A stretch of 53,409 bases of DNA, taken from Acidobacteriota bacterium. GTDB taxonomy: Bacteria; Acidobacteriota; Blastocatellia; Pyrinomonadales; Pyrinomonadaceae. The notes under the pieces were generated by a model, which saw only the letters and a program-made list of their open reading frames with translations, was not told the DNA's origin and searched no databases. Positions 5,697-51,811 of this stretch are shown here, one piece after another. How positions within the stretch are numbered: the first letter of the stretch is position 1; every line of letters starts with the position of its first letter. The translations under genes and the position numbers were made by a program. The DNA is taken from contig JANMUW010000267.1 in the NCBI GenBank assembly GCA_031392105.1, positions 1-53,409 on the forward strand, read 5' to 3'.

Positions 5697-6419
5697 ATGC
5701 GGATGTTTTCAAACTTTTCACATAAGTTTTGCTTCAAAATGAGAAAACGGGTTCTTAGATTTACGCTTCCGGCTCTTTACTTTATTCTTGTTTCGGGCGT
5801 ATTCGCTCAGAACGCTCCACCTCAAGAACACGATAAGCGAGGGGCTCATTTGGTTGAACTCACCAAGTTAGACAACACCATAAAACTGGATATACGCTAC
5901 GCGACCGCCAACAACTTCGTCGGCCGCGCCGTCTATCCCGAAGCGCGTGCCTTTCTTCAAAAACCGGCCGCGAAGGCTGTAGCGAATGTGCACAAAAAGT
6001 TACGGAAGAAAGGGCTCGGGCTGGTCATTTTCGACGGTTACCGACCGTGGACAATTACAAAGCTATTTTGGGATGTCGTCCCGGAAGATAAGCGGAAGTT
6101 CGTTGCCGATCCGGCTAAAGGCTCGAAACATAATCGCGGATGCGCCGTCGATCTTAGTGTCTTTGATCTAGAAACCGGAGAGTTGATCGACATGCCCTCC
6201 GGATACGACGAATTTACGGAGCGTGCTTCGCCCGACTATGCGGGCGGGACCGTTGACCAGCGTGGAAACCGAGATATGCTTCGCAAGCTGATGGAAGACG
6301 AAGGCTTCACGGTCAATCCTAACGAATGGTGGCACTTCGATTACAAGAATTGGCAGGATTACTCGATTTACGACATCTCGTTCGATGAAGCGGCAAAAGG
6401 TGAAAAAGTGAAAGAGTGA
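5697..6419 (+). CDS. ddpX: D-alanyl-D-alanine dipeptidase (M15D, VanX/DdpX family)
   Basis: Contains IKLDIRYATANNFVGRAVY, VIFDGYRPW, SKHNRGCAVDLS and EWWHFDY, the hallmarks of VanX/DdpX. It carries a signal-like N-terminus. An alternative start is ATG 5739. Confidence 0.88.
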   Translation: MRMFSNFSHKFCFKMRKRVLRFTLPALYFILVSGVFAQNAPPQEHDKRGAHLVELTKLDNTIKLDIRYATANNFVGRAVYPEARAFLQKPAAKAVANVHKKLRKKGLGLVIFDGYRPWTITKLFWDVVPEDKRKFVADPAKGSKHNRGCAVDLSVFDLETGELIDMPSGYDEFTERASPDYAGGTVDQRGNRDMLRKLMEDEGFTVNPNEWWHFDYKNWQDYSIYDISFDEAAKGEKVKE

Positions 6420-6451
6420 AGTCGTTTCTGTAACGCCTTTCACTCTTCACT
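6399..6451. repeat. Word-built imperfect palindrome (GTGAAAG words) between convergent ddpX and yceI-like genes
   Basis: GGTGAAAAAGTGAAAG (6399-6414) pairs with CTTTCACTCTTCACT (6437-6451) with 2 mismatches and 1 indel. The left arm encodes the ddpX C-terminal tail GEKVKE. Confidence 0.45.
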
Positions 6452-6459
6452 CCTCGTTC

Positions 6460-7134
6460 TTACTCCCCCTTCGGCGCGTCTTTCGCTTTTCCAGCCTCGA
6501 TCTGAAGCACTACCTTCACTTCATCTGAGAGGGCCGGAACTCCGCTCGGAAGATTCGTCCCGTAATTAACGCCAAAATCGCGACGGTTGAGCGTGGTTTC
6601 CCCCGCGATCCCCATCTTCATTCCTGCACGATCGCTTGCCGGCAGCCAGCCCGCGATCTCAAAAGGGATCGTGACGGATTTGGTAACTCCTTTCATCGTG
6701 AGATCACCGGTGACGATCCACCCCTTTCCTTTTTTCTCGACCTTCGTGCTGGTGAAAGACATCTCGGGATACTTCTCAACCTCGAAAAAATCAGCGGTCC
6801 GAAGATGTTTATCGCGACCGGCGACGCCTGTATCGACACTTGTCGTCATCGCTTTGAAAGTTACCTTCGATTTCGAAACGTCTTTCGAATCAAAATTCAC
6901 TTCACCGGTGAAGTCGCGGAAGTAACCGGGCACTTCAATAAGCCCCATGTGCCTGACCTTAAATCCGATGAAACTGTGCGCCTTGTCAAAGCTGTAGACG
7001 CCCGACTCGCCGGTTTGTTTTGCGTCGGCGACAAAACTCTCGGCAAACGTCTTGTTGTCCACACTGGTGACACTACCCAAATAAAATATGCCGGCGGCGA
7101 TAACGATCACCGCCAGAAACAAAATCTTTTTCAT
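6460..7134 (-). CDS. YceI family periplasmic protein
   Basis: Contains FDKAHSFIGFKVRHMG..VPGYFRDFTGEVNFD..TSVDTGVAGRDKHLRTADFFEVEKYPEMSF..GDLTMKGVTKSVTIPFE, preceded by a signal peptide. Confidence 0.88.
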   Translation of the reverse strand: MKKILFLAVIVIAAGIFYLGSVTSVDNKTFAESFVADAKQTGESGVYSFDKAHSFIGFKVRHMGLIEVPGYFRDFTGEVNFDSKDVSKSKVTFKAMTTSVDTGVAGRDKHLRTADFFEVEKYPEMSFTSTKVEKKGKGWIVTGDLTMKGVTKSVTIPFEIAGWLPASDRAGMKMGIAGETTLNRRDFGVNYGTNLPSGVPALSDEVKVVLQIEAGKAKDAPKGE

Positions 7135-7258
7135 CTAAGCTCTCCTGATTCTGGTTTTTCTTTTTGAATTATGCGGCAAAAACGATTTGATGCAAACACG
7201 TAAAAAAGCGTTCGGTCAAGGGCATGCTTATTACGGTTATTCTGCTAAAATCCATGGC

Positions 7259-7771
7259 ATGAGTCGACCGGAAAAAACGGAATACGATCCGTACTACGAA
7301 CGCTATGTCTCCCTGGTTGAAAATGACGTCATCCTCGATACTCTTGCTTCGCAGTCTACAAAGTTGAACGCACTTTTTCTGGATATGCCGGAGAAACAGG
7401 GCGAGTTCAGATATGCCGAAGGCAAATGGAGCATCAAGGAATTGCTCGGGCACTTGATCGACGGCGAACGAATGTTTGCGTACAGGCTGTTTCGGATCTC
7501 GCGCGGCGACGAAACTCCGATCGAAGGCTTTGAGCAGGATGGCTACATCGAGAATGCTCATTCTGATAAACGGACGTTCACGAATTTGCTCGTTGAATTC
7601 TCCCTCCTACGACAGGCAAACATGCTCTTCTTCGAAAATCTGACGGCGGAAGCATTGGTCCGGGTCGGAACGGCTAACAACGCGAAAATCTCCGTCCGCG
7701 CCCTTGTCTATATAATGGCCGGCCACATCGAGCACCACCTCGCCATCTTGAAGGAACGTTACCTGGTGTGA
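7259..7771 (+). CDS. DinB family protein
   Basis: Contains MSRPEKTEYDPYYERYVSLV, WSIKELLGHLIDGERMFAYR and GHIEHHLAILKERY, a DinB_2-like His triad. The ORF track starts at 7187. I prefer ATG 7259 because family members start at this motif. Confidence 0.75.
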   Translation: MSRPEKTEYDPYYERYVSLVENDVILDTLASQSTKLNALFLDMPEKQGEFRYAEGKWSIKELLGHLIDGERMFAYRLFRISRGDETPIEGFEQDGYIENAHSDKRTFTNLLVEFSLLRQANMLFFENLTAEALVRVGTANNAKISVRALVYIMAGHIEHHLAILKERYLV

Positions 7772-12923: not shown

Positions 12924-13712
12924 ATGGAACTAACGGTTCTCGGCTCAGGCACGTCCGTGCCAAACGCGAAGCGGAGCAGCTCCGGCTTTTGGCTGCAGAC
13001 GAATGGCGGCTCGATATTGCTCGACTGCTCGGCATCGGCGATCCACCGCATGGCGCAGGAGAAACTCGATTGGCCCGGCCTCGACGCGATCTGGATATCT
13101 CATTTTCATCTCGACCATTGCGGAGGCCTCGCGCCGTTTCTGTTCGGGACCAAACATGCACCGATCATGCAGAATCGGACCAAGCCGCTCCGCATCGTCG
13201 GGGGAAAAGGCTTGAGAAATCTGGTAACGAAATTCAGCGACGCAAACAATTACAATTTGCTTGAGCAGCCATTCCCGATCGAGTTTATTGAGATGGCGCA
13301 CCTTGAAAAGATTGAGATCTTAGACGGTGTCGAAGCGGTCGCGTATTCAACGATTCATACTGAGGACAGCCATGCAATTCACCTTCGCGAGAACGATTCG
13401 ACATTCGTCTACACGGCTGATACAGGGTTCGATGAAACCCTCGCGACCTTCGCGCGTCGCGTCGACTTACTGTTGATGGAGTGCTCGTTTATCCGGAACA
13501 AGCCGATCGACAAACATCTCGAACTCGCCGAAGCAATTCATTTGATCAGACGTGCGGAACCTTCACTTGCCGTGCTAACGCACTTCTATCCGGAATGGGA
13601 TGAGGTGAGTTTTGTTGAGGAGGTCTCAAAATTGTCGCCAGGACGTGATGTGATTGAGGCGACCGATGGATTACGGATCTCCCTTCCGAACAAACTAAAA
13701 ACTAAAAAGTGA
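12924..13712 (+). CDS. MBL-fold metallo-hydrolase (RNase Z/BN-like)
   Basis: Contains LTVLGSGTSVP and the metal motif ISHFHLDHCGG, then TADTG and LTHF. Confidence 0.8.
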   Translation: MELTVLGSGTSVPNAKRSSSGFWLQTNGGSILLDCSASAIHRMAQEKLDWPGLDAIWISHFHLDHCGGLAPFLFGTKHAPIMQNRTKPLRIVGGKGLRNLVTKFSDANNYNLLEQPFPIEFIEMAHLEKIEILDGVEAVAYSTIHTEDSHAIHLRENDSTFVYTADTGFDETLATFARRVDLLLMECSFIRNKPIDKHLELAEAIHLIRRAEPSLAVLTHFYPEWDEVSFVEEVSKLSPGRDVIEATDGLRISLPNKLKTKK

Positions 13713-13775
13713 AAACTGAAAACGCCTTGACGGTCATTTTCAGTTTCCACTTTTTAGTTTTAGTTTGTTCGGAAG
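13683..13775. repeat. 93-bp near-perfect palindrome (ACTAAAA words) between convergent genes
   Basis: The 40-nt arm at 13683-13722 pairs with the 39-nt arm at 13737-13775 with 1 mismatch and 1 indel. The loop is 14 nt. The left arm encodes the last 10 codons (LPNKLKTKK) of the MBL gene. Confidence 0.85.
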
Positions 13776-16228: not shown

Positions 16229-16927
16229 ATGTCGGAGAGATCGTTGGAGGTTCGCAGGCTGGGCCGAGTTGCCTATTCGGACGGTCTGGAGTTCCAGAAG
16301 CAGCTTGAGCATGAGGTTATCGAGAACCGCGGGCTCGACTATCTTTTGCTGCTCGAACACCCACATACGTTCACTGTTGGCAGGCGTTCGAAGACCGAAG
16401 GTGTGCTCGCAACGGCGGAAATGCTAAGGAAACTAGGCGTAGAGGTCTTTGAAACGAACCGCGGCGGAAAGGTAACTTATCACGGGTTAGGCCAGGTAGT
16501 AGGCTATCCCATAATTTCACTCTCGCCCGATCGCGAGGATGTTCACAAATACGTCCGCGACATCGAGGAAGTGCTGATCCGCACGATGGCGGATTTCACT
16601 ATCGAGGCATTTCGGATCGACGGCCTTACCGGAGTTCATACGACCGAAGGCAAAGTCGCCGCCATCGGTGTCCACATCAAGCGTTGGGTCACGACTCATG
16701 GGTTTGCATTGAACGTGAATACTGATCTGAGCTATTACAACTGGATCATCGCTTGCGAAGGTGAACCGGTAATATCGATGAATAGTCTCCTCGATCGTGA
16801 AGTTGATATGGGCGAGGTGGAAGATCGGCTGGCAGAAAATTTTAGAGAGGTTTTTGGATACAGATCGGAGCCAACGACACTGGCGGAAGCCCGAGCGGTA
16901 GCGAGGGTGTCTGATGTAAGCGTCTGA
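16229..16927 (+). CDS. lipB: Octanoyltransferase LipB
   Basis: Contains LLLLEHPHTFTVGRR, NRGGKVTYHGLGQVVGYPI, KVAAIGVHIKRWVTTHGFALNV. Confidence 0.9.
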   Translation: MSERSLEVRRLGRVAYSDGLEFQKQLEHEVIENRGLDYLLLLEHPHTFTVGRRSKTEGVLATAEMLRKLGVEVFETNRGGKVTYHGLGQVVGYPIISLSPDREDVHKYVRDIEEVLIRTMADFTIEAFRIDGLTGVHTTEGKVAAIGVHIKRWVTTHGFALNVNTDLSYYNWIIACEGEPVISMNSLLDREVDMGEVEDRLAENFREVFGYRSEPTTLAEARAVARVSDVSV

Positions 16928-16977
16928 AGGACACACTCCCTACCGGTCGTGTTCTGCCTTTTGCAACGAGGTTATCT

Positions 16978-17938: not shown

Positions 17939-18014
17939 GTAACTATCCACTCGAAACTATCCACTAGTCACTGAAGCTTCAGTGGGTAGTGAATAGTTTC
18001 AAGTGGATAGTCAC
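17939..18014. repeat. 76-bp loop-less imperfect palindrome (AACTATCCACT words)
   Basis: The 38-nt arms (17939-17976 and 17977-18014) match at 33/38 positions. The centre is CTGAAG/CTTCAG. Confidence 0.8.
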
Positions 18015-18801: not shown

Positions 18802-18926
18802 CATTACGAAATTACCAATTACTTAATTACAAAATTAAAAGCATACAAAGACCTTCGAAGCTCTTCAGCCCACGAAGGTCTTTTCTCATTCAATTTTGTA
18901 ATTAAGTAATTAGTAATTTTGTAATG
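18802..18926. repeat. 125-bp nested palindrome (ATTAC words) filling the spacer between convergent genes
   Basis: The outer 35-nt arms (18802-18836 and 18892-18926) match at 33/35 positions. The inner hairpin AAAGACCTTCG/CGAAGGTCTTT (18847-18857 and 18873-18883) ends in a short T run. Confidence 0.85.
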
Positions 18927-18930: not shown

Positions 18931-21078
18931 TCAGCGAGCGAGCGAGACGCTGATGTGCGACGGATATTTCGCCGAACGGTATATCTTCTGAGTCGCCGGT
19001 TGAAAATCAGCTTCTTCAGCACGAAGAATATTCGGAACGAACTTCTGCGGATTACGATTGTAGAGCGGGAACCAGGTGCTCTGGATCTGGACCATGATCC
19101 GATGTCCTTTCTTGAATGTGTAATCGTTCCCGCGCATGTCGATGGAATATTTCCTCGCAGCGTTTGGCTTCAAAGGTTCGGCTTTCTCAAAGCTCTTCAG
19201 ATATCGCCCGCGAAATATCTCACTCGCCACCATGAGCTCATAGTTCGACATCTTCGGATCCTCAGCACCCGACGGATAGATATCGATCAGCTTCACGACC
19301 CAATCGCTGTCCGTGCCGCTCGTCGAAGCAAAAATATTTGCGATGATGTTACCGGTGATCGTTACCTCGTCGGTAAGCGGATCGGACTTCCAAATCAGAA
19401 CGTCCTTGCGATCGGAGACGAAGCTCTGGTCGTCGACAAGCCAAGCGTACCATGTCGAGCCTTGACCATAGGTGGGTAGTATCGGGCGTTTGCGATAAGG
19501 GACCGGATTCCCCGGATCAGAGACGTAGGAATCGGACGCATCGGATCTATCAGTCGGTTTGTCGAATGAAAGTTTGCCTGACGCGTGAAGGTATAATCCA
19601 GCCTTCCGATTTGTTTTCGGTGTCCATGAGTCGTACCCCATCCACCGGTTCGAGCCGGAACGAAAGATAGACGCCTCCGGAAGCTTCAACGACCCTTTAC
19701 CTTTCAGATGATAAGCAAAAAATGGCGCGAGGATCTCGGATCGAAAATGCCGGCCGGTGTCGCTACCGAAATCGATCGCCGCAAGCTTGCGGCCGCGTCC
19801 GCCCCATCCGCCGTGGTTCCACGGCCCCATCACAAGATTGACCTGATCATCTCTATCAGCTTTCTCGAGCGTCTTGTAAAGAGCGAGTGGGCCGTACAGG
19901 TCCTCCTGATCCCACCAACCGCCAACGATCAACGTAGGGACACTCGTGTCCCTTAGATACAAATTCGTGGCTCGTGCCTGCCAGTACGCGTCCCAGTCGG
20001 GATGCTCGAGAAACGCTTTCCACGAATGCGACTTCGTCGCGAGTTCGGTCGCAAGATCCGACATCTTCTTCGCACCCATGTACCACTTGAAAAGATCAGG
20101 CTCTTCAAACTTGATATCGCCACCTTTCTTCGCCGACTCGAGCGGGACCGCCCACTCGTGTGCGTACGTTTGACGCAAAGCTCCATGATGCGAGAAATCG
20201 TCTCCCATCCAGAGATCGGTGACCGGTGCCTGCGGCGACGACGCCTTTAGCGCCGGATGCGGATCAAGCAATGCTACGGCCGCGAGCCATCCGGGATAAC
20301 TGACTCCGCAGATGCCGACGCGTCCGTTATTCTTCGGAACGTTCTTCAGCAAATATTCGATCGTGTCATACGTGTCCGTGCTTTCGTCGACTGATTTCGG
20401 ATCGCGTTTGTCACGGGGCGGCCGGAGCATCTCGAATACGCCTTCGGAATCTTCACGCCCACGGATGTCCTGAAACACGAAGATGTAACCATCTTTCACG
20501 AGCTCGGCTTTCGCCCCGTTAACGCGGGAGGAGTTCCAGCCTGCGACACCGTACGGTGTTCGTTCCATGTAGATAGGCAAGTTCTCGGTTTGGGATTCCG
20601 GTGTAAGGATGATGGTGAAGAGTTTCACCCCGTCGCGCATCGGGATCATTGCCTCGGTGCGTTTAAACGCAACACGAGTATCCTTCGCCGGCTGGTCCGC
20701 GATTTTCTTCGTATGAAATTCCGCCCCGTTCTGCCGCCATATCATTCCGTTTACGCGTCCCGAAGGATCACGAACGAATTCTGCGGATGCAGGGAATGCT
20801 TTCAAAACAAATTTGTTCTCAGTGCTCGGAAAGATCTCTACCCTGTCCTGATTAGTTCCCTGAAGATAAAACTTTTCACCCTCACGAAAGAACGACAAAA
20901 TGAGCCCACCCAGATTCTCCGCGTCCTCATACTGGCCGACAAATGGATCGAACGCCTCCGGTGCGATCTTGATCTCAAACGGTGTCGGCTGCGCGGTTGG
21001 CTGTTGGGCGTCGACCCGAGAACCGAGAAAGAGAGACAAGAGAACAAGTACGATCGTGATGTAAGTTGGAGGAGTCAT
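18931..21078 (-). CDS. CocE/NonD family hydrolase (S15 X-Pro dipeptidyl-peptidase-like)
   Basis: Contains ERTPYG, FVFQDIRGR and GVSYPGW. ATG 21078 gives the signal peptide MTPPTYITIVLVLLSLFLGSRVDAQ. The 70-aa ORF-track extension is Arg-rich and overlaps the neighbouring terminator. Confidence 0.85.
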   Translation of the reverse strand: MTPPTYITIVLVLLSLFLGSRVDAQQPTAQPTPFEIKIAPEAFDPFVGQYEDAENLGGLILSFFREGEKFYLQGTNQDRVEIFPSTENKFVLKAFPASAEFVRDPSGRVNGMIWRQNGAEFHTKKIADQPAKDTRVAFKRTEAMIPMRDGVKLFTIILTPESQTENLPIYMERTPYGVAGWNSSRVNGAKAELVKDGYIFVFQDIRGREDSEGVFEMLRPPRDKRDPKSVDESTDTYDTIEYLLKNVPKNNGRVGICGVSYPGWLAAVALLDPHPALKASSPQAPVTDLWMGDDFSHHGALRQTYAHEWAVPLESAKKGGDIKFEEPDLFKWYMGAKKMSDLATELATKSHSWKAFLEHPDWDAYWQARATNLYLRDTSVPTLIVGGWWDQEDLYGPLALYKTLEKADRDDQVNLVMGPWNHGGWGGRGRKLAAIDFGSDTGRHFRSEILAPFFAYHLKGKGSLKLPEASIFRSGSNRWMGYDSWTPKTNRKAGLYLHASGKLSFDKPTDRSDASDSYVSDPGNPVPYRKRPILPTYGQGSTWYAWLVDDQSFVSDRKDVLIWKSDPLTDEVTITGNIIANIFASTSGTDSDWVVKLIDIYPSGAEDPKMSNYELMVASEIFRGRYLKSFEKAEPLKPNAARKYSIDMRGNDYTFKKGHRIMVQIQSTWFPLYNRNPQKFVPNILRAEEADFQPATQKIYRSAKYPSHISVSLAR

Positions 21079-21188
21079 ATGAATTTGAGAAAAGTATGCG
21101 CAGATTCTACGCACTTTCTGAACGAAAAGTTTACGCTGCAGAGCGAACCCGGATAGCCGCATCCTTACCGCCTGGAGATCCCTCCGGC

Positions 21189-21215
21189 AAAAAAGGCTCC
21201 CCGAATCGGAGAGCC
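21189..21215 (-). terminator. Rho-independent terminator after the class A PBP gene
   Basis: Stem GGCTCCCCG/CGGAGAGCC (8 of 9 pairs). On the minus strand it is followed by 6 T (A-run 21189-21194). Confidence 0.7.
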
Positions 21216-23852: not shown

Positions 23853-23903
23853 GCCACAGAGGACACAGAGAGCTTTCCGAACTTGCTCTGTGTGCTCGGT
23901 GGC
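23853..23903. repeat. Imperfect palindrome (CACAGAG words) downstream of rodA
   Basis: GCCACAGAGGACACAGAGAGC (23853-23873) faces GCTCTGTGTGCTCGGTGGC (23885-23903). No U tract follows on the minus strand. Confidence 0.6.
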
Positions 23904-28418: not shown

Positions 28419-28427
28419 CCTCTCTAA

Positions 28428-28497: not shown

Positions 28498-28500
28498 TAC

Positions 28501-29803: not shown

Positions 29804-29831
29804 GCGAAAAAGGCGGTCCGAAGACCGCCTT
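29804..29831 (-). terminator. Rho-independent terminator after the 706-aa secreted protein gene
   Basis: 9-bp stem AAGGCGGTC/GACCGCCTT with loop CGAA. A T run follows on the minus strand. Confidence 0.75.
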
Positions 29832-36682: not shown

Positions 36683-36745
36683 CTCTTTGCGACTTTGCGC
36701 CTTTGCGGGAAATTTATCTCCCGTAAAGACGCAAAGCCGAAAAGG
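36683..36745. repeat. Imperfect palindrome (three CTTTGCG words) in the hsp20-lon spacer
   Basis: CTTTGCGACTTTGCGCCTTTGCGGGA (left arm) faces TCCCGTAAAGACGCAAAGCCGAAAAG (right arm). Several mismatches. Confidence 0.6.
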
Positions 36746-37120: not shown

Positions 37121-37199
37121 AGTGATGAGTGACTAGGGACGAGTGACAAGCTTCGGAAAAGAATTTCGTCACTCGTCATTTTCCCTCGTCACTAACACT
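37121..37199. repeat. Imperfect palindrome built from GTGAYNA heptamers (CBS-hsp20 spacer)
   Basis: The left arm is GTGATGA GTGACTA GGGACGA GTGACAA. The right arm is CGTCACTCGTCATTTTCCCTCGTCACTAACACT. It shares AGTGATGAGTGAC with the element at 50371-50486. Confidence 0.75.
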
Positions 37200-37662
37200 A
37201 CTTTTTACTCCAAAAACTACTGCCGCTCGAGATCTCTTCCAAGGCCTCCATGATCTCGCGTTCATCTTCCATCTCGAGAGCGATGTCGGCCATCGCTATG
37301 ATCCCGGCTAACGCTCCGGACTCATCAACAACCGGTATGCGGCGAACCTGTTTGTCGCCCATCAAGCGGATCGCCTCGAAAACGAAATCGTCGGGCTTAA
37401 CGGAAAAGATCTCTGTCGTCATCGCCTCACCGACCGCTGACGAAGCGTCGAGCCCGTCCGCAATCGAGCGCACGACGATGTCACGGTCGGTCACTATCCC
37501 GACGAGCTTTCCGTTCTCAACAACCGGTACGGAGCCCATGTCGCCATCGCGCATCATCACCGCTGCATCCCTTAGCGGCATGTCCCGCGTCGCGGTCTTG
37601 ACGTTCGACGTCATTATTTCCCTGCACTTGATGCGGGCAGCGCGCGAGGCTTCGGTCATCAA
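37198..37662 (-). CDS. CBS domain pair protein
   Basis: Two CBS motifs: IMTSNVKTATRDMPLRDAAVMMRDGDMGSVPVVENGKLVGIVTDRDI and VKPDDFVFEAIRLMGDKQVRRIPVVDESGALAGIIAMADI. Confidence 0.88.
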   Translation of the reverse strand: MMTEASRAARIKCREIMTSNVKTATRDMPLRDAAVMMRDGDMGSVPVVENGKLVGIVTDRDIVVRSIADGLDASSAVGEAMTTEIFSVKPDDFVFEAIRLMGDKQVRRIPVVDESGALAGIIAMADIALEMEDEREIMEALEEISSGSSFWSKK

Positions 37663-39288: not shown

Positions 39289-39765
39289 ATGAAAAGAACT
39301 GTATCTATCCTCGCATTCGTCATCACATTCCTTTCGACGACCGGGGCCTTTGCCCAGGGCCGGCCGGAGTGGATCGGACAGGTCAAACAAACGCTCAAGC
39401 AAAAGGAGACGGCATGGAAAATCGAGGATGGTCTCCTTAATGACAGTGAGGTGATGTATGAGGAAAGCTTTCGGTTTAAGAAAGGTGCGTTTACCGGCGT
39501 CGTTGAGATAGACGTCTACTACATACTGACAAATCCGGAAGAAACTTTTGGCGGTATCGTTACGGTAACGGACAACCTTAGTAAGCGCGAAAAGAAGACA
39601 AAGCTTCCCGGTCTCGGGGATGAGGGATATATGTGGACCAGCAGCAACGCCGGCGACTACACAAAGATCTTATTCAAGAAAGACAAGACTTTCGTTTCGA
39701 TTTGGCTCCCTGGACGGGCCCTCGCGCAGCGTGTTGCGAAACATGTGGCGGCTCACATGCCATAG
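39289..39765 (+). CDS. Secreted hypothetical protein
   Basis: Signal peptide MKRTVSILAFVITFLSTTGAFAQ. I recognise no family. The 3-prime end overlaps the convergent ferredoxin gene by 13 nt. Confidence 0.55.
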   Translation: MKRTVSILAFVITFLSTTGAFAQGRPEWIGQVKQTLKQKETAWKIEDGLLNDSEVMYEESFRFKKGAFTGVVEIDVYYILTNPEETFGGIVTVTDNLSKREKKTKLPGLGDEGYMWTSSNAGDYTKILFKKDKTFVSIWLPGRALAQRVAKHVAAHMP

Positions 39766-39998
39766 TCATATTCGCTGCCACCGATCGCTTCGACTGGGCA
39801 TGCATTAAAAGCTTCTTCACAGAGCTCCCGCTCCTCGGGCGATTCGGGCTGTTTATAGACGTACGAGTATCCGTTCTCGTCGTTACGTCGGAAGTTCGCG
39901 GGTGAGGTATCGCGACACACGTCACAATCGATACACTGCGAGTCGACAAAATATCTGCCCGGAATATTGTCCGGAAGCTTATCTCCTAGAAATGCCAT
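39753..39998 (-). CDS. Small ferredoxin
   Basis: 81 aa with CIDCDVC...CPVEAI, a single-cluster ferredoxin pattern. Confidence 0.8.
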   Translation of the reverse strand: MAFLGDKLPDNIPGRYFVDSQCIDCDVCRDTSPANFRRNDENGYSYVYKQPESPEERELCEEAFNACPVEAIGGSEYDYGM

Positions 39999-40006
39999 AA
40001 GAACAT

Positions 40007-40077
40007 GCCCGCGAAATACGCGAAAGATGCGAAAGTAAGAAGGCTCTCTTTCGCGTCATTTCGCCTATTTCGCGGGC
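40007..40077. repeat. 71-bp palindromic element, GCCCGCGAAA family (CGCGAAA nonamer words)
   Basis: GCCCGCGAAATACGCGAAAGATGCGAAAG faces CTCTTTCGCGTCATTTCGCCTATTTCGCGGGC. The outer 12 bp pair perfectly. The termini and length match the element at 51741-51811. Confidence 0.8.
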
Positions 40078-40083
40078 AGATTT

Positions 40084-42439: not shown

Positions 42440-42519
42440 GTATTGGTAGTCGGTAGTAAGTAGCCGATAGAAAAGCGTCCAAGCAGCGCGAGCTGCTACC
42501 TTCTGCCGGCTACCGGCTA

Positions 42520-43140
42520 CTAGTTGTGCTTCAAAACTATGCTCTCAATGATATTGGCCACGCTTTCGCAGCGATCGGTTGCGTTCTCGAGAATCTCGTA
42601 AAACTCTTTCCACTTGATCACTTCGATCGGATCTTTCTCGTTTTTAAATAGCTCACCAATGGCGCGGAAGTAAACGTCGTCGGCCTCATTCTCGAGCCGG
42701 TGAATTTCGCGAAACCGTTCGGTAATTCCATCGGGCTTTTTTAGTACCGATACCGCACCGTTGATCTCCACGCCCAGGTCCTTGATGATCCTCGCGAGCT
42801 GGCGCGAATACGCGTTCTGATGGCGAATGTCGTACATCACGATCGCCCGAACACCCGCGTCGATGTAGTCGCAGATGTCGTCCAGAGCGACAGCGAGGGT
42901 ATATATGTCCTCCCGATCGAAGGGCGTGATGAACGATTTGTTCAGCTTGTTCGTGATCTGATGCGTGATCTGGTCGCACGCATGCTCGACGTCCTTGACG
43001 CGCGTTTTGAACGACGCAAAATCCGCGTCCGGAGTGTCAAGCATCTCGGTCAGGATCGCCGATGCTTCCTCGATCTTCCCGGCCATCTTCGTGAACAAGT
43101 CGAAATAAACGTCTTCGCGCGGCAGTAAGCTAAATGCCAT
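42520..43140 (-). CDS. DUF47/PhoU-like PiT accessory protein
   Basis: MAFSLLPREDVYFDLFTKMAGKIEEA matches my memory of TIGR00153/DUF47 N-termini. GGAG SD precedes ATG 43140. The gene sits directly upstream of pit. Confidence 0.8.
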   Translation of the reverse strand: MAFSLLPREDVYFDLFTKMAGKIEEASAILTEMLDTPDADFASFKTRVKDVEHACDQITHQITNKLNKSFITPFDREDIYTLAVALDDICDYIDAGVRAIVMYDIRHQNAYSRQLARIIKDLGVEINGAVSVLKKPDGITERFREIHRLENEADDVYFRAIGELFKNEKDPIEVIKWKEFYEILENATDRCESVANIIESIVLKHN

Positions 43141-44054: not shown

Positions 44055-44735
44055 TTACTCGGACGGAGGTGTTGGCGAACCGTAGCGGTGCTTGATGAAG
44101 GCGGCTTCACGGAGATAAACGTTGAGCTCGCAAATGTCTTTCACATAGTCTCCGATCCGCTCGAGGTGCTTGGCCACAAACAGCAGATGAGCGGCTCCGG
44201 TCGTAGCTGCCGGGTTATCGATCATCATCTCGAGAAGTTCGCTAAAGACACGGCGATACGCTTCGTCGATCAACCTGTCGCGCTCGATGATCTCGCGGGA
44301 AAGCGCGGCATCCTCGCTGGTAAACGCATCAAGTGCAGAGCGAAGCATTTCGGTCGCGGTCTGCGCCATGATCGGAAAGTCGACGTAATTCTTAGTATGC
44401 GGCTCGTTATTTAGTATTATCGCGGCCTCGGCAATACTGCCCGCATGGTCCGCGATCCTTTCCAGGATCGGCGTTATCTTCGCGACCGAGATGACGAAGC
44501 GCAGATCGTGCGCCGCGGGTTGCTGTAGCGCGATTATCTCAATACTTAGACGATCGATCTCGAGCTCCATCTGATCGATGATCTTGTCTTCCTCGAGCAC
44601 CTGCTTTGCGAGCTCGCTGTCGCGCTCTACGAGAGACTGCATCGCCCTCTGAACGGCTTGCTCCGTGGCACCGCCAAGCAGAAGGATCTTATCGCGAAGG
44701 TGGTCTAATTGTTGGTCAATGATCCGATGATCCAT
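44055..44735 (-). CDS. phoU: Phosphate signalling complex protein PhoU
   Basis: Two PhoU repeats (E..D..ID and RIGDYVKDICE), directly after pstB. Confidence 0.88.
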   Translation of the reverse strand: MDHRIIDQQLDHLRDKILLLGGATEQAVQRAMQSLVERDSELAKQVLEEDKIIDQMELEIDRLSIEIIALQQPAAHDLRFVISVAKITPILERIADHAGSIAEAAIILNNEPHTKNYVDFPIMAQTATEMLRSALDAFTSEDAALSREIIERDRLIDEAYRRVFSELLEMMIDNPAATTGAAHLLFVAKHLERIGDYVKDICELNVYLREAAFIKHRYGSPTPPSE

Positions 44736-44779
44736 GTTTTATTTATCCTAACACAGAAGAAAACCCAGCTAATTTCTAA

Positions 44780-45538
44780 TCATCCAAACCGGCCGGTGAT
44801 ATAGTCCTCAGTCAATTTCTCATCCGGATTCTGGAAGACCTTGTCGGTTCGGTTGAATTCGATGAGCTTACCAAGCATGAAGAACGCCGTCCGGTCCGAA
44901 ACGCGGGCAGCCTGCTGCATGTTGTGGGTGACTATCACGATCGTATAATTCCGCTTCAATTCGACAACTAACTCCTCGATCTTTTGCGTTGCGATCGGAT
45001 CGAGGGCAGAGGCAGGTTCGTCCATCAACACGACCTCCGGCTCGACCGCCAACGCTCGGGCAATGCACAGCCGCTGCTGTTGGCCACCGGACAGTCCAAA
45101 CGCCGACATGTTCAACCTGTCCTTAACTTCCTCCCAAAGCGCCGCGTTCCGAAGGGCATTCTCGACTCTGTCCTTTAGATCGGTCTTGTTCGAATGAATT
45201 CCGTTGATCTTAATTCCGTATGCGACGTTATCGAAGATCGACTTCGGGAACGGGTTCGACTTCTGAAAGACCATTCCAACCTTCCGTCGAAGAGCGACGA
45301 CATCGGTACCGGCTGCGTAGATATTCTCGCCGTCGATAATAACCTCACCTTCAACACGAGCCCCGGGGATGGTGTCGTTCATTCGATTCAGCGTGCGGAT
45401 GAAAGTCGATTTGCCACAGCCCGACGGGCCGATAAAGGCGACGACCTCGCGCTCCGGGATCTCAAGCGAAATGCCGTGCAGAGCTTGGACCTTGCCGTAA
45501 AAGAAATCCAGATTGGAAATACTGATTTTCGTTTGCAT
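44780..45538 (-). CDS. pstB: Phosphate ABC transporter ATP-binding protein PstB
   Basis: Contains [34 protein letters not shown] and [13 protein letters not shown]. Confidence 0.95.
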
Positions 45539-45545
45539 CCCGTTG

Positions 45546-46400
45546 CTAAAATCTTTTCCTCGTCACAAACCTTACCAGGATATTAATAAGAAGTATCAAA
45601 CCTACAAGTATCAGCGTTGCGGCCCACGCCATCGCGTGTTCGACCTCGAACGGGCCAGTCGCGTAGTTAAATATCTGGACGGTGAGAGACGACATCGGCT
45701 GGTCGTAATATAAATTGTAGAACCTGCTATTGAGCGCCGTGAAAAGCAGCGGTGCGGTCTCACCCGTTACGCGTGCAATTGCCAGCATCGCTCCGGTCGC
45801 AATTCCGGAAGCGGCGGCCGGTAGGACGATATTTAGCGAGACGCGCCATTGCGGTGCTCCCAGAGCAAGAGCGCCTTCGCGCATCGAATTAGGGACGAGC
45901 CGGATCATTTCCTCGGTAGTTCGGGCAACGATCGGAAGCATGATGATGGCGAGGGCGAGTCCCCCCGCGAGTCCTGATTGCCGGCCCATTGGCAACACGA
46001 CGAGTGTGTAAACAAAGATCCCGATGATTATCGAGGGAATGCCGATAAGAGTGTCGGCAATAAATCTGACCGTGTTCCCAAACCAATTTCTGCCATACTC
46101 CGCGAGATAAATGCCTGCCGCGATACCGACGGGTAATCCAATGACCGCCGCCAGCAGTGTCATCATTGCCGATCCGGCGATCGCGTTACCGATTCCCCCG
46201 CCCTCGCCTACCGGTTTCGGGGTTCCCACGAGAAACTCAAAGCTCAACGACGAGATGCCGCGGACGGCGATGTACGAGACGATCAGTAGCAGGATGGCCG
46301 TTGCGAAGATCGCGCAAATAGCCGTCAGGCTCGTCATAAGCGTGTTCGTCAGCCGCCGCCGCCGACCAAAAAGTGTCGTCGCGCTCCCCATATCAATCAA
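45546..46400 (-). CDS. pstA: Phosphate ABC transporter permease PstA
   Basis: Polytopic permease containing EGALALGA..W, at the expected position in the operon. Confidence 0.88.
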
Positions 46401-47323
46401 ATACTCTTCGCCCCTCCGCCTCGCGCGACGCTAAGAATCAATAGCTTCGCAAATGCGTTAACAACGAACGTGACAAGGAAAAGGACGAGCCCGATCTCGA
46501 TCAGGGCGCTCAGGTAAATCTTGTCCGTCGCCTCCGCAAAGTTTGCGGCAAGAAGCGAAGCGATCGTATTCGCAGGCTCGAATAACGAAGCTGTTATCTG
46601 AGGCGAATTACCGATGACCATTGTTACGGCCATCGTCTCTCCGATAGCCCGGCCAAGGCCCAGCACGACAGCTCCGGCGATGCCTGACGCAGCGTTCCTT
46701 AGTACGATTGTTGTCGTTTCCCACTTCGTCGCACCGAGGGCGAGTGCAGCCTCCCGCTGTGTGGTGGGCACGGCTTCCAGCACATCCCGGACCACGGCGG
46801 TGATTATCGGCGTTATCATGAGTGCGAGGATGATCGAGCCGGTTAACATACCGATTCCCGTCAGCCGTCCCTGAAACAGCGGGACAAATCCGAAATTGCC
46901 TTGCAAAAACGGACCAAGATAGTTACGGATGAACGGAGCCAGGACGAATATACCCCACAGGCCGTAGACAACCGACGGGATCGCCGCTAACAGCTCAACC
47001 ATAAATGCGATCGGACGTGCGATCTTTTGCGGAGCCTGTTCGACGAGAAAGATCGCTATGCCTAGCGAGATGGGAACTGACAGCAGCAGCCCGATGACCG
47101 ACGAGACGACCGTACCGTAAATAAACGGTAACGCACCGAAACTCTCCTGGGCGGGCTTCCATTCGCGGCCGAAGAAAAACCCTGCGCCAAAGCGCTCGAG
47201 TGTCGGCATCGCACTCTGTGCCATCATGACAAATATTGCGGCCACGATGACTAGAATGCTCGCGGCCGCACAGAGAACGAGAGTACGAAAAATTTTGTCG
47301 CCGATGGCGCCGGTACTTGCCAA
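46397..47323 (-). CDS. pstC: Phosphate ABC transporter permease PstC
   Basis: Polytopic permease containing REAALALGATKWE. It overlaps the pstA start by 4 nt. Confidence 0.88.
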   Translation of the reverse strand: MASTGAIGDKIFRTLVLCAAASILVIVAAIFVMMAQSAMPTLERFGAGFFFGREWKPAQESFGALPFIYGTVVSSVIGLLLSVPISLGIAIFLVEQAPQKIARPIAFMVELLAAIPSVVYGLWGIFVLAPFIRNYLGPFLQGNFGFVPLFQGRLTGIGMLTGSIILALMITPIITAVVRDVLEAVPTTQREAALALGATKWETTTIVLRNAASGIAGAVVLGLGRAIGETMAVTMVIGNSPQITASLFEPANTIASLLAANFAEATDKIYLSALIEIGLVLFLVTFVVNAFAKLLILSVARGGGAKSI

Positions 47324-47324
47324 C

Positions 47325-48425
47325 TTACTGTCGCAGCGGTTTGCCGCTGTTAGTTATTGAATTGATCTTCGTCTCGACCTTTTTTATTACCTCGGCCGGG
47401 AGCGGAGCGTAATGAAGCTCGGCTGCAAACTTTTCTCCATCGTGTAACGCCCACCACAGGAAATCGACAAGAGCCTTTCCCTTGGAAGCGTCACCCTGAT
47501 CCTTATAGACCAGAATATATGTGTAGCTCGAGATCGGATAAACACCCGCTCCTTCAGCATCTGTGATCTGTACGCGAAGATCATCCGGCATTTTCGCAAC
47601 GGAGCCAGCCGCTGCGGTTTTGACCGTCTCTATGCTTGCGTCGATAAACTCGCCGGCTTTGTTCTTGATTTGGGCGGCGGGAAGCGTATTGGCTTTTGCG
47701 AAGGTCAATTCCACGTAGCCGATCGAATTTGGCGTCTGCTTGACTTGTCCCATCACGCCGTCATTCCCTTTCGCTCCGACTCCGACGCCGGTGATCCAGC
47801 TTGGTTGTTTATTCATGCCGACCTTGGCTTTCCAATCCGGAGAGGTCTTCGAAAGAAAATCCGTAAATACTGCCGAGGTGCCGCTCGAATCCGCTCGGTA
47901 AACCGGCAGGATGTCGGCGTCAGGAAGGGTTACACCGGGATTATCCTTTGCGAGTCTTTCGTCGTTCCACTTCTTGATGTTGCCGAGATAAATGTCAGAG
48001 ATCGTTTGCCCCGAAAGCTTCAACGGCTGTTTCACACTCTCAAGATTGTACGTAAGCACCACTGCACCGAGAACGGTCGGAATATGAAGGATCTCGCCGG
48101 TAGCAGATTTCAGATCGTCGTCGCTCATCGGATCGTCCGAAGCTCCGAAATCGGCTGTTTTCGCAAGCAGGGCTTTTTGACCTGCTCCCGATCCCGTCGC
48201 TTGATAATCGATCTTGACTGCCGGATTAACCTTGCCGAATTCGTTCACCCATTTCTCGTAGATCGGCTTAGGAAAGCTCGCCCCCGAACCCTGCAGCCGA
48301 ACTGTGCTGCCGCTGCTCTGAACGTTTGTGTCACCCCCCTGACCCATCTTTTGGCCGCTGCATGCGATGCTGGCAACAACAAAAACGAGAACGAAGGTAT
48401 ATTTCGCAATTGATCCATGATTCAT
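47325..48425 (-). CDS. pstS: Phosphate-binding protein PstS
   Basis: Lipoprotein-like signal (..VVASIACSG). Contains GSGASFP, YQATGSGAGQ and FGASDDPM. Confidence 0.9.
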   Translation of the reverse strand: MNHGSIAKYTFVLVFVVASIACSGQKMGQGGDTNVQSSGSTVRLQGSGASFPKPIYEKWVNEFGKVNPAVKIDYQATGSGAGQKALLAKTADFGASDDPMSDDDLKSATGEILHIPTVLGAVVLTYNLESVKQPLKLSGQTISDIYLGNIKKWNDERLAKDNPGVTLPDADILPVYRADSSGTSAVFTDFLSKTSPDWKAKVGMNKQPSWITGVGVGAKGNDGVMGQVKQTPNSIGYVELTFAKANTLPAAQIKNKAGEFIDASIETVKTAAAGSVAKMPDDLRVQITDAEGAGVYPISSYTYILVYKDQGDASKGKALVDFLWWALHDGEKFAAELHYAPLPAEVIKKVETKINSITNSGKPLRQ

Positions 48426-48804: not shown

Positions 48805-48951
48805 TTATTTACCATCCCCTCGCCATTGGGGCTTTTTCGGCGAACCACTTCGAGTCCCGAGCACATCAAATCCCCGCCAAAACTTATGGTTGATTCGCGC
48901 TTTCCCGGTAGCCTAGAATCGATCATGTGAGAACTATCCGGAGATTTAAAA

Positions 48952-50367: not shown

Positions 50368-50370
50368 AGA

Positions 50371-50486
50371 AGTGACGAGTGACAAGTGATGAGTGACGAG
50401 TGATGAGTGATGACTGGCGAGAAGAGTAGCTGACACCATCTTCGCCATCTCCTGACTCCCGTCACTCATCTGTCGTCACTCGTCAC
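50371..50486. repeat. Heptamer-array palindrome (six AGTGAYR repeats plus inverted partner)
   Basis: AGTGACG AGTGACA AGTGATG AGTGACG AGTGATG AGTGATG (50371-50412) faces GTCACTCATCTGTCGTCACTCGTCAC (50461-50486). The right arm encodes the MFS C-terminus (..VTSDDR). Confidence 0.8.
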
Positions 50487-51713
50487 CGCCCTTTGCCGGA
50501 CCGTCAGCAGACACGCCGACGCAATGATCGAGATCGCCGCGCTCATCAGGAACGCCGGCGCAGCACCGAACTCACTCCAGACAAATCCGAAGATGATCGA
50601 CGCCGGAAAGACGGTGATGCCGTATGCGAGATTATATAGGCCGAATGCCGTTCCGCGTTTTTCGTCGGAAACCAGGTCGGCGACGAGGGCTTTCTCAACG
50701 CCTTCGGTCAGTCCAAAGTAGAGGCCATAAATAATAAACAGGGTCCACGCCTGCCACGCCGAATCGGCAAACGCGAATCCTGCGTAGACGACGGCGTAGA
50801 TCACCCATCCGGTTAAAATAAGTGTCTTCCGTCCGACCTTGTCCGAGAGATCTCCGCCGATGATCGAGCTAAACAGTTTGCTGAAATGGAGGGCCATCCA
50901 GAGCAACGGCAGCATCGCCGGCGCGACACCGGTTTGCTCGGCGCGAAGGAGAAGGAACGCATCGGTCGAGTTCGATAACGTAAAGAGCGCGACAACGACG
51001 AGAAAGCGTTTGAAATTCGAATCGAATGCCCGAAATGAAAACTTGATCGGCGCCGCGTCGATCTCGGGTATCGGTTTCCTGGCTTCCCGGACGAAGAAGA
51101 CAATGACGAACAATCCGATCGCGACCGGGATCGACGCAAACAGGAAAACCTGTTGGTACTCGCGCGCGGTCGGTGTCGCGGGGTCGACGGCAAGGTAAGT
51201 CAGAAGTAAAAACGCGACGACCGGCCCGACAACGGCGCCGAGATGATCGGCAGCACGGTTAAATCCGAAAGCAAGGCCCCGCGAATTGTCGGGAACCGTC
51301 GCCGCAAGCAACGCATCGCGTGGAGCTCCTCGGATCCCCTTACCGATCCGATCCGTCATTCGAACGGCGAGCACCTGCGGCCAGCTGGTTACAAAAGCTA
51401 GCAACGGACGCACGACAGCTGCCAGCGCATATCCGAGAAAGACGGGCAGTTTTCGATTACCCAACTTATCGCTCAGATAGCCCGAGAAAAGCTTGAGGAT
51501 GCTGGCGATCGATTCGGCAAAGCCTTCGATCAAGCCTATGGCGAACGGACTGGCGCCAAGCGTCAGCGCGAGAAAGGTCGGTAGAAGCGGATATATGATC
51601 TCGCTCGAGGTGTCGTTGAGAAAGCTGACAATGCTGAGAGCAAAGACCGTCGGCGAAAGATTGCGATATCGCCGCAACAATCCCGTACGCTTGTCATTGT
51701 CCGATTCGTTCAT
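50466..51713 (-). CDS. MFS transporter
   Basis: 415 aa with about 12 TM helices. Contains the MFS loop motifs DRIGKG and LSDKLGNRK. Confidence 0.85.
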   Translation of the reverse strand: MNESDNDKRTGLLRRYRNLSPTVFALSIVSFLNDTSSEIIYPLLPTFLALTLGASPFAIGLIEGFAESIASILKLFSGYLSDKLGNRKLPVFLGYALAAVVRPLLAFVTSWPQVLAVRMTDRIGKGIRGAPRDALLAATVPDNSRGLAFGFNRAADHLGAVVGPVVAFLLLTYLAVDPATPTAREYQQVFLFASIPVAIGLFVIVFFVREARKPIPEIDAAPIKFSFRAFDSNFKRFLVVVALFTLSNSTDAFLLLRAEQTGVAPAMLPLLWMALHFSKLFSSIIGGDLSDKVGRKTLILTGWVIYAVVYAGFAFADSAWQAWTLFIIYGLYFGLTEGVEKALVADLVSDEKRGTAFGLYNLAYGITVFPASIIFGFVWSEFGAAPAFLMSAAISIIASACLLTVRQRAVTSDDR

Positions 51714-51740
51714 ACCCGTCCAAAGGATGAAGACAGTTTT

Positions 51741-51811
51741 GCCCGCGAAAAACGCGAACGGCGCGAAAAGTCGGTTTTTCTCTTTCGCGTTATTTCGCGT
51801 TTATCGCGGGC
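51741..51811. repeat. 71-bp palindromic element, GCCCGCGAAA family (second copy)
   Basis: GCCCGCGAAAAACGCGAACGGCGCGAAAAG faces CTCTTTCGCGTTATTTCGCGTTTATCGCGGGC. Length and termini match the element at 40007-40077. Confidence 0.8.

Follow-up and report, generated by a model that had tools for sequence, protein, structure and literature searches.

Inverted heptamer arrays as hairpins at gene 3′ ends in Pyrinomonadaceae: persistent sites and changing words

Tandem arrays of seven-nucleotide units in noncoding DNA have been described in several bacteria, the closest case being that of Xanthomonas, where 186 and 183 arrays of the heptamer GGGAATC were counted in two genomes (Rehm et al. 2015, PMC4692102). 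Inverted array pairs with stem-loop potential account for 70 to 75 cases per genome. The arrays lie at a mean of 28 nt from the upstream open reading frame (ORF), mostly between co-directional genes, with 16% in convergent and 7 to 8% in divergent contexts, and at the same gene pairs their length and sequence differ between Xcc and Xac (PMC4692102). We analyzed a 53,409-nt stretch of DNA, here called the window, from an Acidobacteriota bacterium of the family Pyrinomonadaceae (contig JANMUW010000267.1, positions 1 to 53,409), in which an earlier note made from the sequence alone had listed twelve long palindromes whose arms are tandem arrays of short words. That note did not recognize them as a described family, but the Xanthomonas inverted heptamer arrays (PMC4692102) and the heptamers of cyanobacteria are precedents. 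As in Xanthomonas, the units are tandem 7-mers and mostly intergenic, although only 5 of the 12 window elements have period 7 and the rest have 8, 9 or 14; inverted arrays also lie close together just past an ORF, 63 of 85 being paired here, with the stem starting a median of 4 nt after the stop codon. Unlike Xanthomonas, which has one G-rich consensus (GGGAATC/GGGANTN) with G-quadruplex potential, these bacteria have dozens of words, few of them G-quadruplex capable; they also belong to another phylum, and persistence of sites with turnover of words is seen here in about 80 genomes.

The STRR (short tandemly repeated repetitive) elements of heterocystous cyanobacteria are likewise heptanucleotide tandem arrays in noncoding DNA with several words per genome (74 of 85 arrays are intergenic here), but both the phylum and the words differ. 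They have mainly been described as direct arrays and used for fingerprinting, and neither a systematic link to stop codons nor mirror symmetry of arms is documented in the descriptions compared. The nif intergenic regions were reportedly called "highly variable but structured" by Jackman and Mulligan in 1995, and Vioque is said to have described in 1997 an STRR lengthening a helix of RNase P RNA. A more general excess of heptanucleotide simple sequence repeats in prokaryotes has been attributed to polymerase slippage (Mrazek et al. 2007, as relayed in PMC4679880 and PMC4692102). Period 7 is favored here too (85 arrays versus at most 2 of any other period), but that study, so far as it is relayed there, concerns direct repeats, whereas paired inverted arrays form site-conserved hairpins here.

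Repetitive extragenic palindromic (REP) sequences and bacterial interspersed mosaic elements (BIME), GTAG-tagged REPs included, are extragenic palindromes after genes and are thought to be mRNA stabilizers or terminators (PMC3733652). True GTAG palindromes occur in the very same spacers in relatives, as a family separate from the twelve elements, and a subfamily with the word CGCGAAA resembles a low-copy REP. Most hairpins, in contrast, lack a common consensus, their words differ between loci and genomes, and their arms are internally repetitive; no common GTAG or CGTC terminal tag was found at the arm starts of the 12 elements. The earlier statement that these are not REP/BIME or miniature inverted-repeat transposable element (MITE) copies of one consensus holds for most of them, with the CGCGAAA family (two window copies) as a partial exception. 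In contrast to MITEs, no flanking duplication was present at the L075 site described below, and loops are unrelated between copies that share an arm. Canonical intrinsic terminators are also hairpins at gene 3′ ends, and the element at 18802 is built around a terminator-like core, but a U tract follows only 1 of 91 hairpins here, stems measure about 30 bp and loops about 14 nt, and most lie inside operons. Eukaryotic foldback (FB) transposable elements are kilobase-sized, with long inverted arms of short tandem units, and their transposition has been demonstrated. The hairpins resemble them in having inverted arms made of short-unit arrays, with variable arm lengths and central parts, and differ in size (50 to 170 nt), in their at most putative mobility and in the lack of target-site duplication at the L075 site.

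A search of the literature on Acidobacteria found no description of such elements. What sets these hairpins apart from the known systems is the multitude of words, the unit-by-unit mirroring of the arms and the family-wide persistence of sites with word turnover; the sequences also hint at concerted change across units, arms and loci. The Pyrinomonadaceae and Blastocatellia are abundant in soil and sediment and have almost no molecular genetics. A density of about one hairpin per 4 to 5 kb extrapolates to the order of a thousand per genome, which would make the hairpins a main form of intergenic punctuation, overlooked by terminator predictors and annotators. Why heptamer repeats are in excess in bacteria (Xanthomonas, cyanobacteria and others) has been unexplained for decades. 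With the same sites, different words, one-arm indels and compensated arms, about 80 genomes are at hand here for comparisons that could tell mutation (slippage, template switching) from structural selection and address why the unit is 7 nt.

Heptamer hairpins and word turnover across the family

Relatives were collected by an MreC search with one genome per species, which returned 116 relatives; the best 80, with 64 to 94% identity, were taken. All 80 are labeled as metagenome-assembled genomes of Pyrinomonadaceae, Blastocatellia or Acidobacteriota. Their MreC-anchored loci (L001 to L080; 1.14 Mb) together with the window make up 1.19 Mb. Inverted repeats were detected by dynamic programming of the einverted type (match, +3; mismatch, −4; 1-nt bulge, −7; loop, ≤40 nt), because energy-only local folding (Lfold) gave about 300 equal-energy matches in coding DNA and was unusable as an element finder. 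Folding z-scores were derived from 200 dinucleotide-preserving shuffles per element. An assembly artifact was rejected as a source of the architecture, which is the same in 80 independent assemblies, including two complete chromosomes, those of L041 and L080 (OZ252004.1, OZ244558.1). A cyanobacterial source of the window was likewise rejected, its genes and relatives being acidobacterial, and E. coli gave no match.

The 1.19 Mb contained 289 inverted repeats with a score of at least 36, and 117 had clearly periodic arms. The period was 7 in 81 of the 102 periodic hairpins scoring at least 43 in the 80 loci. Stringent tandem arrays of at least three units gave the same picture, with 85 arrays of period 7 and no more than 2 for each other period from 5 to 12. 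Of these heptamer arrays, 74 were intergenic and 63 (74%) had an inverted partner within 100 nt, compared to 2 of 85 in the control. Slippage by 7-nt units is by far the dominant route by which short repeats originate and change in these genomes. About 48 distinct canonical words were present among the period-7 hairpins; none was dominant and few had G-runs.

Turnover of the words was followed at the spacer between mreB and mreC, which was readable from stop to start in 76 genomes and had a median length of 81 nt. A strong hairpin (folding free energy [dG], ≤−20; z, ≤−3) was present in 56 of these genomes, or in 64 at a looser cut-off, and was periodic in 45 of the 56, with period 7 in 41 of these 45. 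The words included GGTGAGT, AAGGAGA, GGCAGTT, GTCAGTT, GAGAGTC, GGGATGA, AAGTCCA, AGTTCCG, ATGATGA, GGTAAGT, AGTGAAG, GACGCGG and others, and could be unrelated even between genomes with 92 to 94% identical MreC. Sister genomes had words in common, and some words recurred in distant clades. Family-wide, this spacer keeps a hairpin even as the word changes. One spacer (L018) contained half an array, and a few other genomes had a nonperiodic hairpin. At some other sites the word was kept (CTTTGCG after hsp20 and AATTAC in the convergent spacer between an esterase and a peptidase gene); elsewhere the orthologous hairpin was replaced by a REP-like GTAG palindrome or by another palindrome.

Comparison of close relatives revealed how the arms change. 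In L050 and L052, whose flanks are 98% identical, the only difference between the mreB-mreC hairpins is an indel of 14 nt (two units) in the 5′ arm; at a second hairpin, one arm has an indel of 7 nt. These indels are direct evidence of unit slippage on single arms, and the expansion process that the earlier note had offered as one possible origin is directly visible in them. With flank identities of 84 to 90% the word was usually retained, and substitutions sometimes shifted the pairing register; at 80% or less the hairpin was often replaced outright.

Pairing between the arms was analyzed by register. Complementarity was 0.87 in register and 0.72 when the arms were slid by one period, indicating that several registers can pair but that the true register is better than common words alone would give. 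Nine mreB-mreC hairpins belong to a family with the word AGTTYCN, in which 92% of cells were paired and 9 of 28 pairs were changed on both sides. The covariation score of 0.209 was reached by none of 500 shuffles and by no slid control. The AGTT core of the units was invariant in the nine genomes while the last three positions varied. The arrays are thus mostly inverted pairs whose register pairing is kept through two-sided changes and whose single arms gain and lose units. Such covariation fits selection at the RNA level and correction of arms at the DNA level alike and does not separate them.

Periodic hairpins had a median arm of 30 positions, a median loop of about 14 to 15 nt and stems of about 30 bp. 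Co-directional spacers held 91 of them, convergent spacers 13 and divergent spacers 6, and 3 were in coding sequence. With the mreB-mreC site excluded, the stem started a median of 4 nt past the upstream stop codon and ended a median of 12 nt ahead of the next start codon, and a T-run (6 or more T within the 9 nt downstream of the stem) followed 1 of 91 hairpins. In spacers of 50 to 250 nt, again without this site, long hairpins of any kind occurred at frequencies of 60% (convergent), 38% (co-directional) and 14% (divergent), and periodic hairpins at 18%, 15% and 7%. Periodic hairpins therefore track gene 3′ ends, as nonperiodic ones do, and yet are not canonical terminators. The low frequency of T-runs, with the stem and loop sizes, bears out two earlier statements, that most elements lack a U tract and that the palindromes are separate from the terminators of the window. 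Read 5′ to 3′ on either strand, the first arm was G-rich rather than C-rich in 70 hairpins versus 14 (41 versus 11 without the mreB-mreC site); the same held for nonperiodic intergenic hairpins (42 versus 8), which also preferred A in the first arm. As this polarity is identical on both strands, it gives no indication of which strand matters.

Three observations concern the surroundings of the mreB-mreC hairpin. A freshwater-sediment metagenome matches the window sequence; in the same study, a related strain is represented by a contig that aligns on either side and omits exactly the 82-nt spacer 28419-28500, and loose ends at 28508 in that metagenome have a different word (CACACTC...), so that strains of one habitat differ at this hairpin. 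Gene callers differ on the start of mreC (window 28386-28418), giving 288 or 299 to 300 aa, and the upstream ATG, about 7 nt after the hairpin, is supported by tblastn conservation from residue 1 in nearly all loci. Upstream of mreB, three loci (L050:8342-8505, L052:8051-8437 and L055:8361-8467) have about 450 nt of consecutive, different, unpaired heptamer arrays with the words GAGTTCC, ATCGTRA (14 times), GTAAGCC, AAGACCR and GTCACTC, a stretch that is probably a 5′ leader or promoter region.

The twelve hairpins of the window and sharing of words between loci

The listed palindromes were real, all 12 folding as single long hairpins at −18 to −55 kcal/mol. Eleven had z-scores of about −4 to −14, and the element at 42445-42523, already termed weaker in the earlier note, had a z-score of only −2.6. 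Fourteen inverted repeats in the window scored at least 36, ten of which were listed elements; an eleventh (6407-6451) lay exactly on this threshold, and that at 42445 fell below it with a score of 32. Ten repeats scored at least 43, compared to 0.18 expected from 40 shuffles of the whole window, and six scored at least 60, compared to none. The class would not have been special, according to the earlier note, if it were no more frequent than in shuffled intergenic sequence; 100 shuffles of the 36 intergenic spacers gave 0.01 expected at a score of at least 43, against the 10 found in the window.

Internal periodicity of the arms was detected in all 12 elements (P ≤ 0.02 versus shuffled arms) and was absent from chance-level inverted repeats within genes. 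Independently, Tandem Repeats Finder (TRF) reported arrays in both arms of most elements. The word lengths given earlier needed correction: the true period is 7 at 13683, 28428, 37121, 42445 and 50371, 8 at 6399, 18802 and 36683, 9 at 23853, 40007 and 51741, and 14 at 17939. With periods of 8 and 9, some of the words previously listed are a 7-mer plus a linker of 1 or 2 nt. The elements, with coordinates in the window, are as follows; CDS stands for coding sequence, MBL for metallo-β-lactamase, PBP for penicillin-binding protein and MFS for major facilitator superfamily.

6399-6451, unstranded: periodic hairpin, word GTGAAAG, period 8, between the convergent genes of an M15 dipeptidase (+) and YceI (−); its 5′ arm comprises the final 21 nt of the dipeptidase CDS (dG −18.4, z −3.96; arm periodicity P = 0.02; TRF array 6395-6420).
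13683-13775, unstranded: periodic hairpin, 39-bp stem, period 7, between a convergent MBL-fold gene (+) and a 142-aa gene (−); units ACTAAAA/AGTGAAA/ACTGAAA are mirrored unit by unit in the opposite arm, and the last 30 nt of the MBL CDS are overlapped (score 103, dG −50.5, z −12.5; TRF 13692-13723, period 7).
17939-18014, plus strand: periodic hairpin, period 14, two AACTATCCACT-type units, between a co-directional 317-aa gene and an esterase gene (score 73, z −10.2; 16/22 self-matches at shift 14, P < 0.001); at the orthologous spacer, L004 has a REP-like GTAG palindrome and L001 a decayed half-array.
18802-18926, unstranded: composite hairpin between convergent esterase (+) and S15 peptidase (−) genes, with an inner GC-rich terminator-like stem (about 18847-18882), A/T tracts on both sides, and AT-rich periodic outer arms of AATTAC plus 2 to 3 nt, period 8 (score 113, dG −51.6, z −13.95); the orthologues in L002 and L005 keep the outer word and have a different inner stem.
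23853-23903, minus strand: short periodic hairpin, two units of CACAGAG, between rodA and the class A PBP gene (score 43, z −4.2, periodicity P = 0.001); the orthologous spacers of L002 and L005 have unrelated palindromes.
28428-28497, minus strand: heptamer hairpin, AGTTTCG/AGTTTCT on the sense strand, filling the mreB-mreC spacer (score 63, z −6.6; TRF period 7 in both arms).
36683-36745, minus strand: periodic hairpin, CTTTGCG, period 8, between hsp20 and lon (score 52, z −8.9); the word is retained at the orthologous site in L002 and L008.
37121-37199, minus strand: heptamer hairpin, GTGAYGA, between a CBS-pair gene, whose stop codon it overlaps, and hsp20, ending 9 nt short of the hsp20 start (z −5.7; 15/20 self-matches at shift 7); at the orthologous site the word of L002 is related, and L005, L008 and L021 have REP-like GTAG palindromes instead.
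40007-40077, minus strand: period-9 hairpin that separates nadA from a ferredoxin gene, with the unit CGCGAAA plus 2 nt and GCCCGCGAAA termini (score 69, z −8.75).
42445-42523, minus strand: weaker heptamer hairpin, GGTAGYC, between a PhoU_div gene and a PHO4 transporter gene, overlapping the upstream stop codon (10/13 self-matches at shift 7; TRF 42495-42520, period 7).
50371-50486, unstranded: longest heptamer hairpin, AGTGAYG, between convergent M48 peptidase (+) and MFS transporter (−) genes, with 7.3 units in the left arm, overlapping the last 21 nt of the MFS CDS (score 65, dG −55.1; 34/42 self-matches at shift 7, z 7.2; TRF arrays 50371-50421 and 50460-50486).
51741-51811, minus strand: second copy of the period-9 hairpin, CGCGAAA/GCCCGCGAAA, between an 80-aa ORF and an MFS gene, a context unlike that of the 40007 copy (score 53, z −6.5).

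Five elements are in convergent spacers and seven between co-directional genes. Two real ORFs were hidden from a simple ORF list, the CBS-pair gene (37198-37662, minus strand) and the ferredoxin gene (39753-39998, minus strand), and with these all 12 elements lie directly after, or overlap, a stop codon, as expected from the location after gene 3′ ends given earlier; no element lies only ahead of a gene, as had been proposed for one case. Arms do run into the last codons of coding sequences (13683-13712, 6399-6419 and 50466-50486). In three genes they reach the last 7 to 10 codons, the MBL-fold protein ending in LPNKLKTKK*, and growth of the repeat therefore rewrites C-terminal tails. Besides altering such tails, the hairpins vary between strains of one sample and likely break short-read assemblies.

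The six short GC-stem, U-tract terminators noted earlier (at 118, 15596, 21189, 29804, 34092 and 39141) were genuine on checking, so this organism also uses canonical terminators. Matches to a terminator-like consensus, taken as a whole, were barely above shuffles. Three are listed here.

125-149, minus strand; about 21185-21215, minus strand; about 29800-29830, minus strand: canonical terminators with short GC stems, UUCG-type loops and 5 to 7 U.

Canonical terminators were located at apparent operon ends, and periodic hairpins were mostly internal to operons.

The earlier note had also held that the word changes from locus to locus. Most loci do differ, but words are re-used within genomes: 19 of 180 within-genome locus pairs (10.6%) shared a 9-mer, compared to 302 of 7,796 pairs between genomes (odds ratio, 2.9; P = 1e-4). 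In the window, the elements at 37121 and 50371 have the word GTGAYGA and 9-mers in common, and those at 40007 and 51741 are copies of one element, about 75 to 80% identical. The CGCGAAA period-9 elements form a small dispersed family of conserved sequence, present in 3 of the 80 related loci. The sequence of the element downstream of nadA was kept in L002 and, despite an MreC identity of only 65%, in L075, and further copies were in other gene contexts. The class is thus not uniform, and a new word at every locus was an overstatement.

In each of L075, L073, L021 and L016, separate loci of the genome carried identical arm stretches of more than 20 nt around loops that were unrelated. Hairpins were also gained or lost between relatives with 83 to 88% identical flanks. 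Presence/absence polymorphism at orthologous spacers had been proposed as a sign of mobility, and a clear case was found: a spacer about 20 nt long in six relatives is occupied by a 97-nt hairpin in L075, but direct alignments showed no target-site duplication at this site. Such empty-site calls rest on direct alignments, an anchor-projection screen having given many false calls because spacer lengths differ. In L021 (4243-4319 and 19125-19226) CACGAAA replaces CGCGAAA, in comparison with L005:4322-4405 and window 40006-40078. The replacement affects every unit in both arms of one hairpin and, at the second locus, the loop-proximal units of both arms, the outer units keeping the older form; the order of the hairpin arms is inside-out relative to L005. 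This change looks like concerted evolution.

REP-like GTAG palindromes (GTAGGACAGGCTGTTAGCCTGTCC) were present at L021:1277, 17259 and 18048, L008:1133, L003:4571 and the L004 orthologue of 17939-18014, with up to five arms per 20-kb locus. They occupy spacers that hold heptamer hairpins in the window, and different hairpin types seem interchangeable at one site.

Explanations of the hairpins

We lean slightly toward reading the elements as RNA hairpins without a U tract, located at 3′ ends and between cistrons and built and remodeled by heptamer slippage with correction between the arms, their odd composition being the mark of a mutational process that runs through the lineage. A role in the transcript, as a barrier, processing site or attenuator tuning neighboring cistrons, is suggested by their position, their persistence and their replacement by other hairpin types at the same sites. 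A stem of 25 to 40 bp in a transcript would be a structural barrier or a processing site; it might block 3′-to-5′ exonucleases, be a target of RNase III or act as a weak attenuator lacking a U tract, and it could set the relative levels of neighboring cistrons, for instance, mreB above mreC and mreD. Gain and loss of units may be nearly neutral, because repeat arms still pair at about 72% when slipped by one unit, and fast drift of the sequence would follow. Complementarity would be restored by selection or by intrastrand template switching (quasipalindrome correction). Several results weigh against such a role. About a quarter of heptamer arrays are unpaired, the mreB-mreC hairpin is absent from L033 and L037 (spacers of 21 to 23 nt), L018 and L029, a few periodic hairpins are in truly divergent spacers, and an RNA-stability element would be expected to have smaller loops than the roughly 14 nt found here. 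Searches of RNA runs yielded only a distant wetland metatranscriptome with 7% of words and the spacer uncovered. Mismatches on the sense strand showed no excess of G:U (94, versus 113 A:C), and sense and antisense RNAs folded equally well (42 versus 48). The G:U test has little power and cannot decide between RNA and DNA, since 104 canonical-looking terminators used as a control were nearly flat (33:25); still, with no strand asymmetry, no result singles out the transcribed strand.

The lack of a strand-specific signal (94:113, and equal stabilities of sense and antisense RNAs) is what would be expected if the hairpins had no RNA function and were a DNA-level by-product of heptamer slippage and fold-back or template-switch copying, tolerated after genes. 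This main rival, possible but on balance improbable in our view, would also accommodate the arrays without a partner and the spacers crowded with more than one kind of array, the gain and loss of hairpins between relatives with 83 to 88% identical flanks and the genomes without a hairpin between mreB and mreC; moreover, the position pattern is partly circular, because spacer length is essentially hairpin length. It accounts less readily for an mreB-mreC hairpin that persists in 56 to 64 of 76 genomes despite complete turnover of the word, for the substitution of unrelated hairpin types (plain or REP-like) at the same sites and for the order convergent > co-directional > divergent, which equals that of nonperiodic hairpins. 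Register pairing (0.87 versus 0.72) beyond what common words alone give, and the presence of covariation, likewise argue against it. Ordinary intrinsic (Rho-independent) terminators that are merely long would explain the position at gene 3′ ends, convergent spacers included, and the element at 18802-18926, with its inner GC-rich stem between A and T tracts, resembles a bidirectional terminator. That explanation is nevertheless very improbable: only 1 of 91 hairpins is followed within 9 nt of its stem by 6 or more T; the stems measure about 30 bp and the loops about 14 nt; most hairpins are internal to operons and immediately precede a start codon (median distance, 12 nt); and at operon ends the same window has clear canonical terminators, in which a short GC stem and a UUCG-type loop are combined with a U tract.

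Sharing of sequence between loci raises the question of mobile foldback elements (MITE- or REP-like) copied between spacers by a transposase encoded elsewhere, for example, a REP-associated tyrosine transposase (RAYT) or an IS200-type Y1 enzyme. The arm identity over more than 20 nt despite unrelated loops (L075, L073, L021 and L016), the enrichment of within-genome word sharing (19/180 versus 302/7,796 pairs; P = 1e-4), the L075 hairpin in place of a spacer of about 20 nt in six relatives, the CGCGAAA period-9 family in several contexts and genomes, the CACGAAA variant in both arms at two loci of L021 (the outer units of the second keeping the older form) and the true REP-like GTAG palindromes at the same kinds of sites all fit such copying. 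Mobility is nonetheless quite unlikely given the dozens of words with no common terminal consensus, the lack of target-site duplication at a clean presence/absence site, the unrelated loops of copies and the evolution of orthologous hairpins in place through unit indels and substitutions. Copies per family are also few, the CGCGAAA element being present in 3 of 80 related loci, and no transposase or RAYT domain was found among about 45 ORFs of the 53-kb window scanned against Pfam. The words could instead be protein-binding sites, for a cold-shock- or S1-type heptamer binder or a regulator, with the hairpin secondary. The vocabulary is limited and partly genome specific, the AGTT core of every AGTTYCN unit is invariant in nine genomes, all units of one L021 hairpin carry the same change, and heptamer binding by CspB is discussed in PMC4679880. 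We give this proposal very little credence, since about 48 distinct canonical words are found among the period-7 hairpins, words at one orthologous site are wholly different in genomes with 92 to 94% identical MreC, and the inverted layout and compensatory changes argue that pairing is what is kept.

A broader reading, tentative and rather improbable, is that a lineage-specific process at the DNA level creates the hairpins at new spacers and homogenizes them within a genome as a self-renewing "periodic foldback" system, which the cell uses as interchangeable operon punctuation. It would have three parts: heptamer slippage, templated correction from arm to arm, and copying or conversion from locus to locus. 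The CACGAAA change in L021, the identical arms of more than 20 nt with unrelated loops and the de novo appearance of a genome-typical hairpin in a 20-nt spacer are possible pointers to it. If true, it would parallel, in bacteria, the concerted evolution of foldback or palindrome repeats in eukaryotes and might involve a dedicated enzyme or a co-evolving binding factor.

Other repeats and genes of the loci

The window includes genes for a TonB-type outer-membrane protein, an mreB-mreC-mreD-pbp2-rodA cluster followed by the class A PBP gene, lon, hsp20, nadA, a PHO4 transporter gene with a PhoU-like gene, pstSCAB-phoU and several peptidase genes. The pstS-pstC-pstA-pstB-phoU operon (44055-48425) has short spacers without a long hairpin, unlike the adjacent PhoU_div-PHO4 pair, and punctuation of this kind is therefore not found in every operon.

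Two other palindromic repeats were observed, in addition to an absence of matches to Rfam at gathering thresholds over the whole window. A second dispersed palindromic family, with arms GTTCAGAGTGCGCGATTTATCGCG and variable centers, was found at L005:14564-14697 and 20390-20494, L002:14522-14587 and L001:8242; its sites include the rodA-PBP spacer, which has the CACAGAG hairpin in the window. A nonperiodic inverted repeat, GAGCGGTAGCGAGGGTGTC ... GACACACTCCCTACCGGTCG, is located at 16882-16958 of the window, upstream of the 317-aa gene, and has no match in Rfam. It is conserved at the orthologous site in L002:19206-19290, L001:12738-12845, L008:19501-19671 and L027 (near 2344), and in the L008 copy the loop is filled with heptamer arrays.

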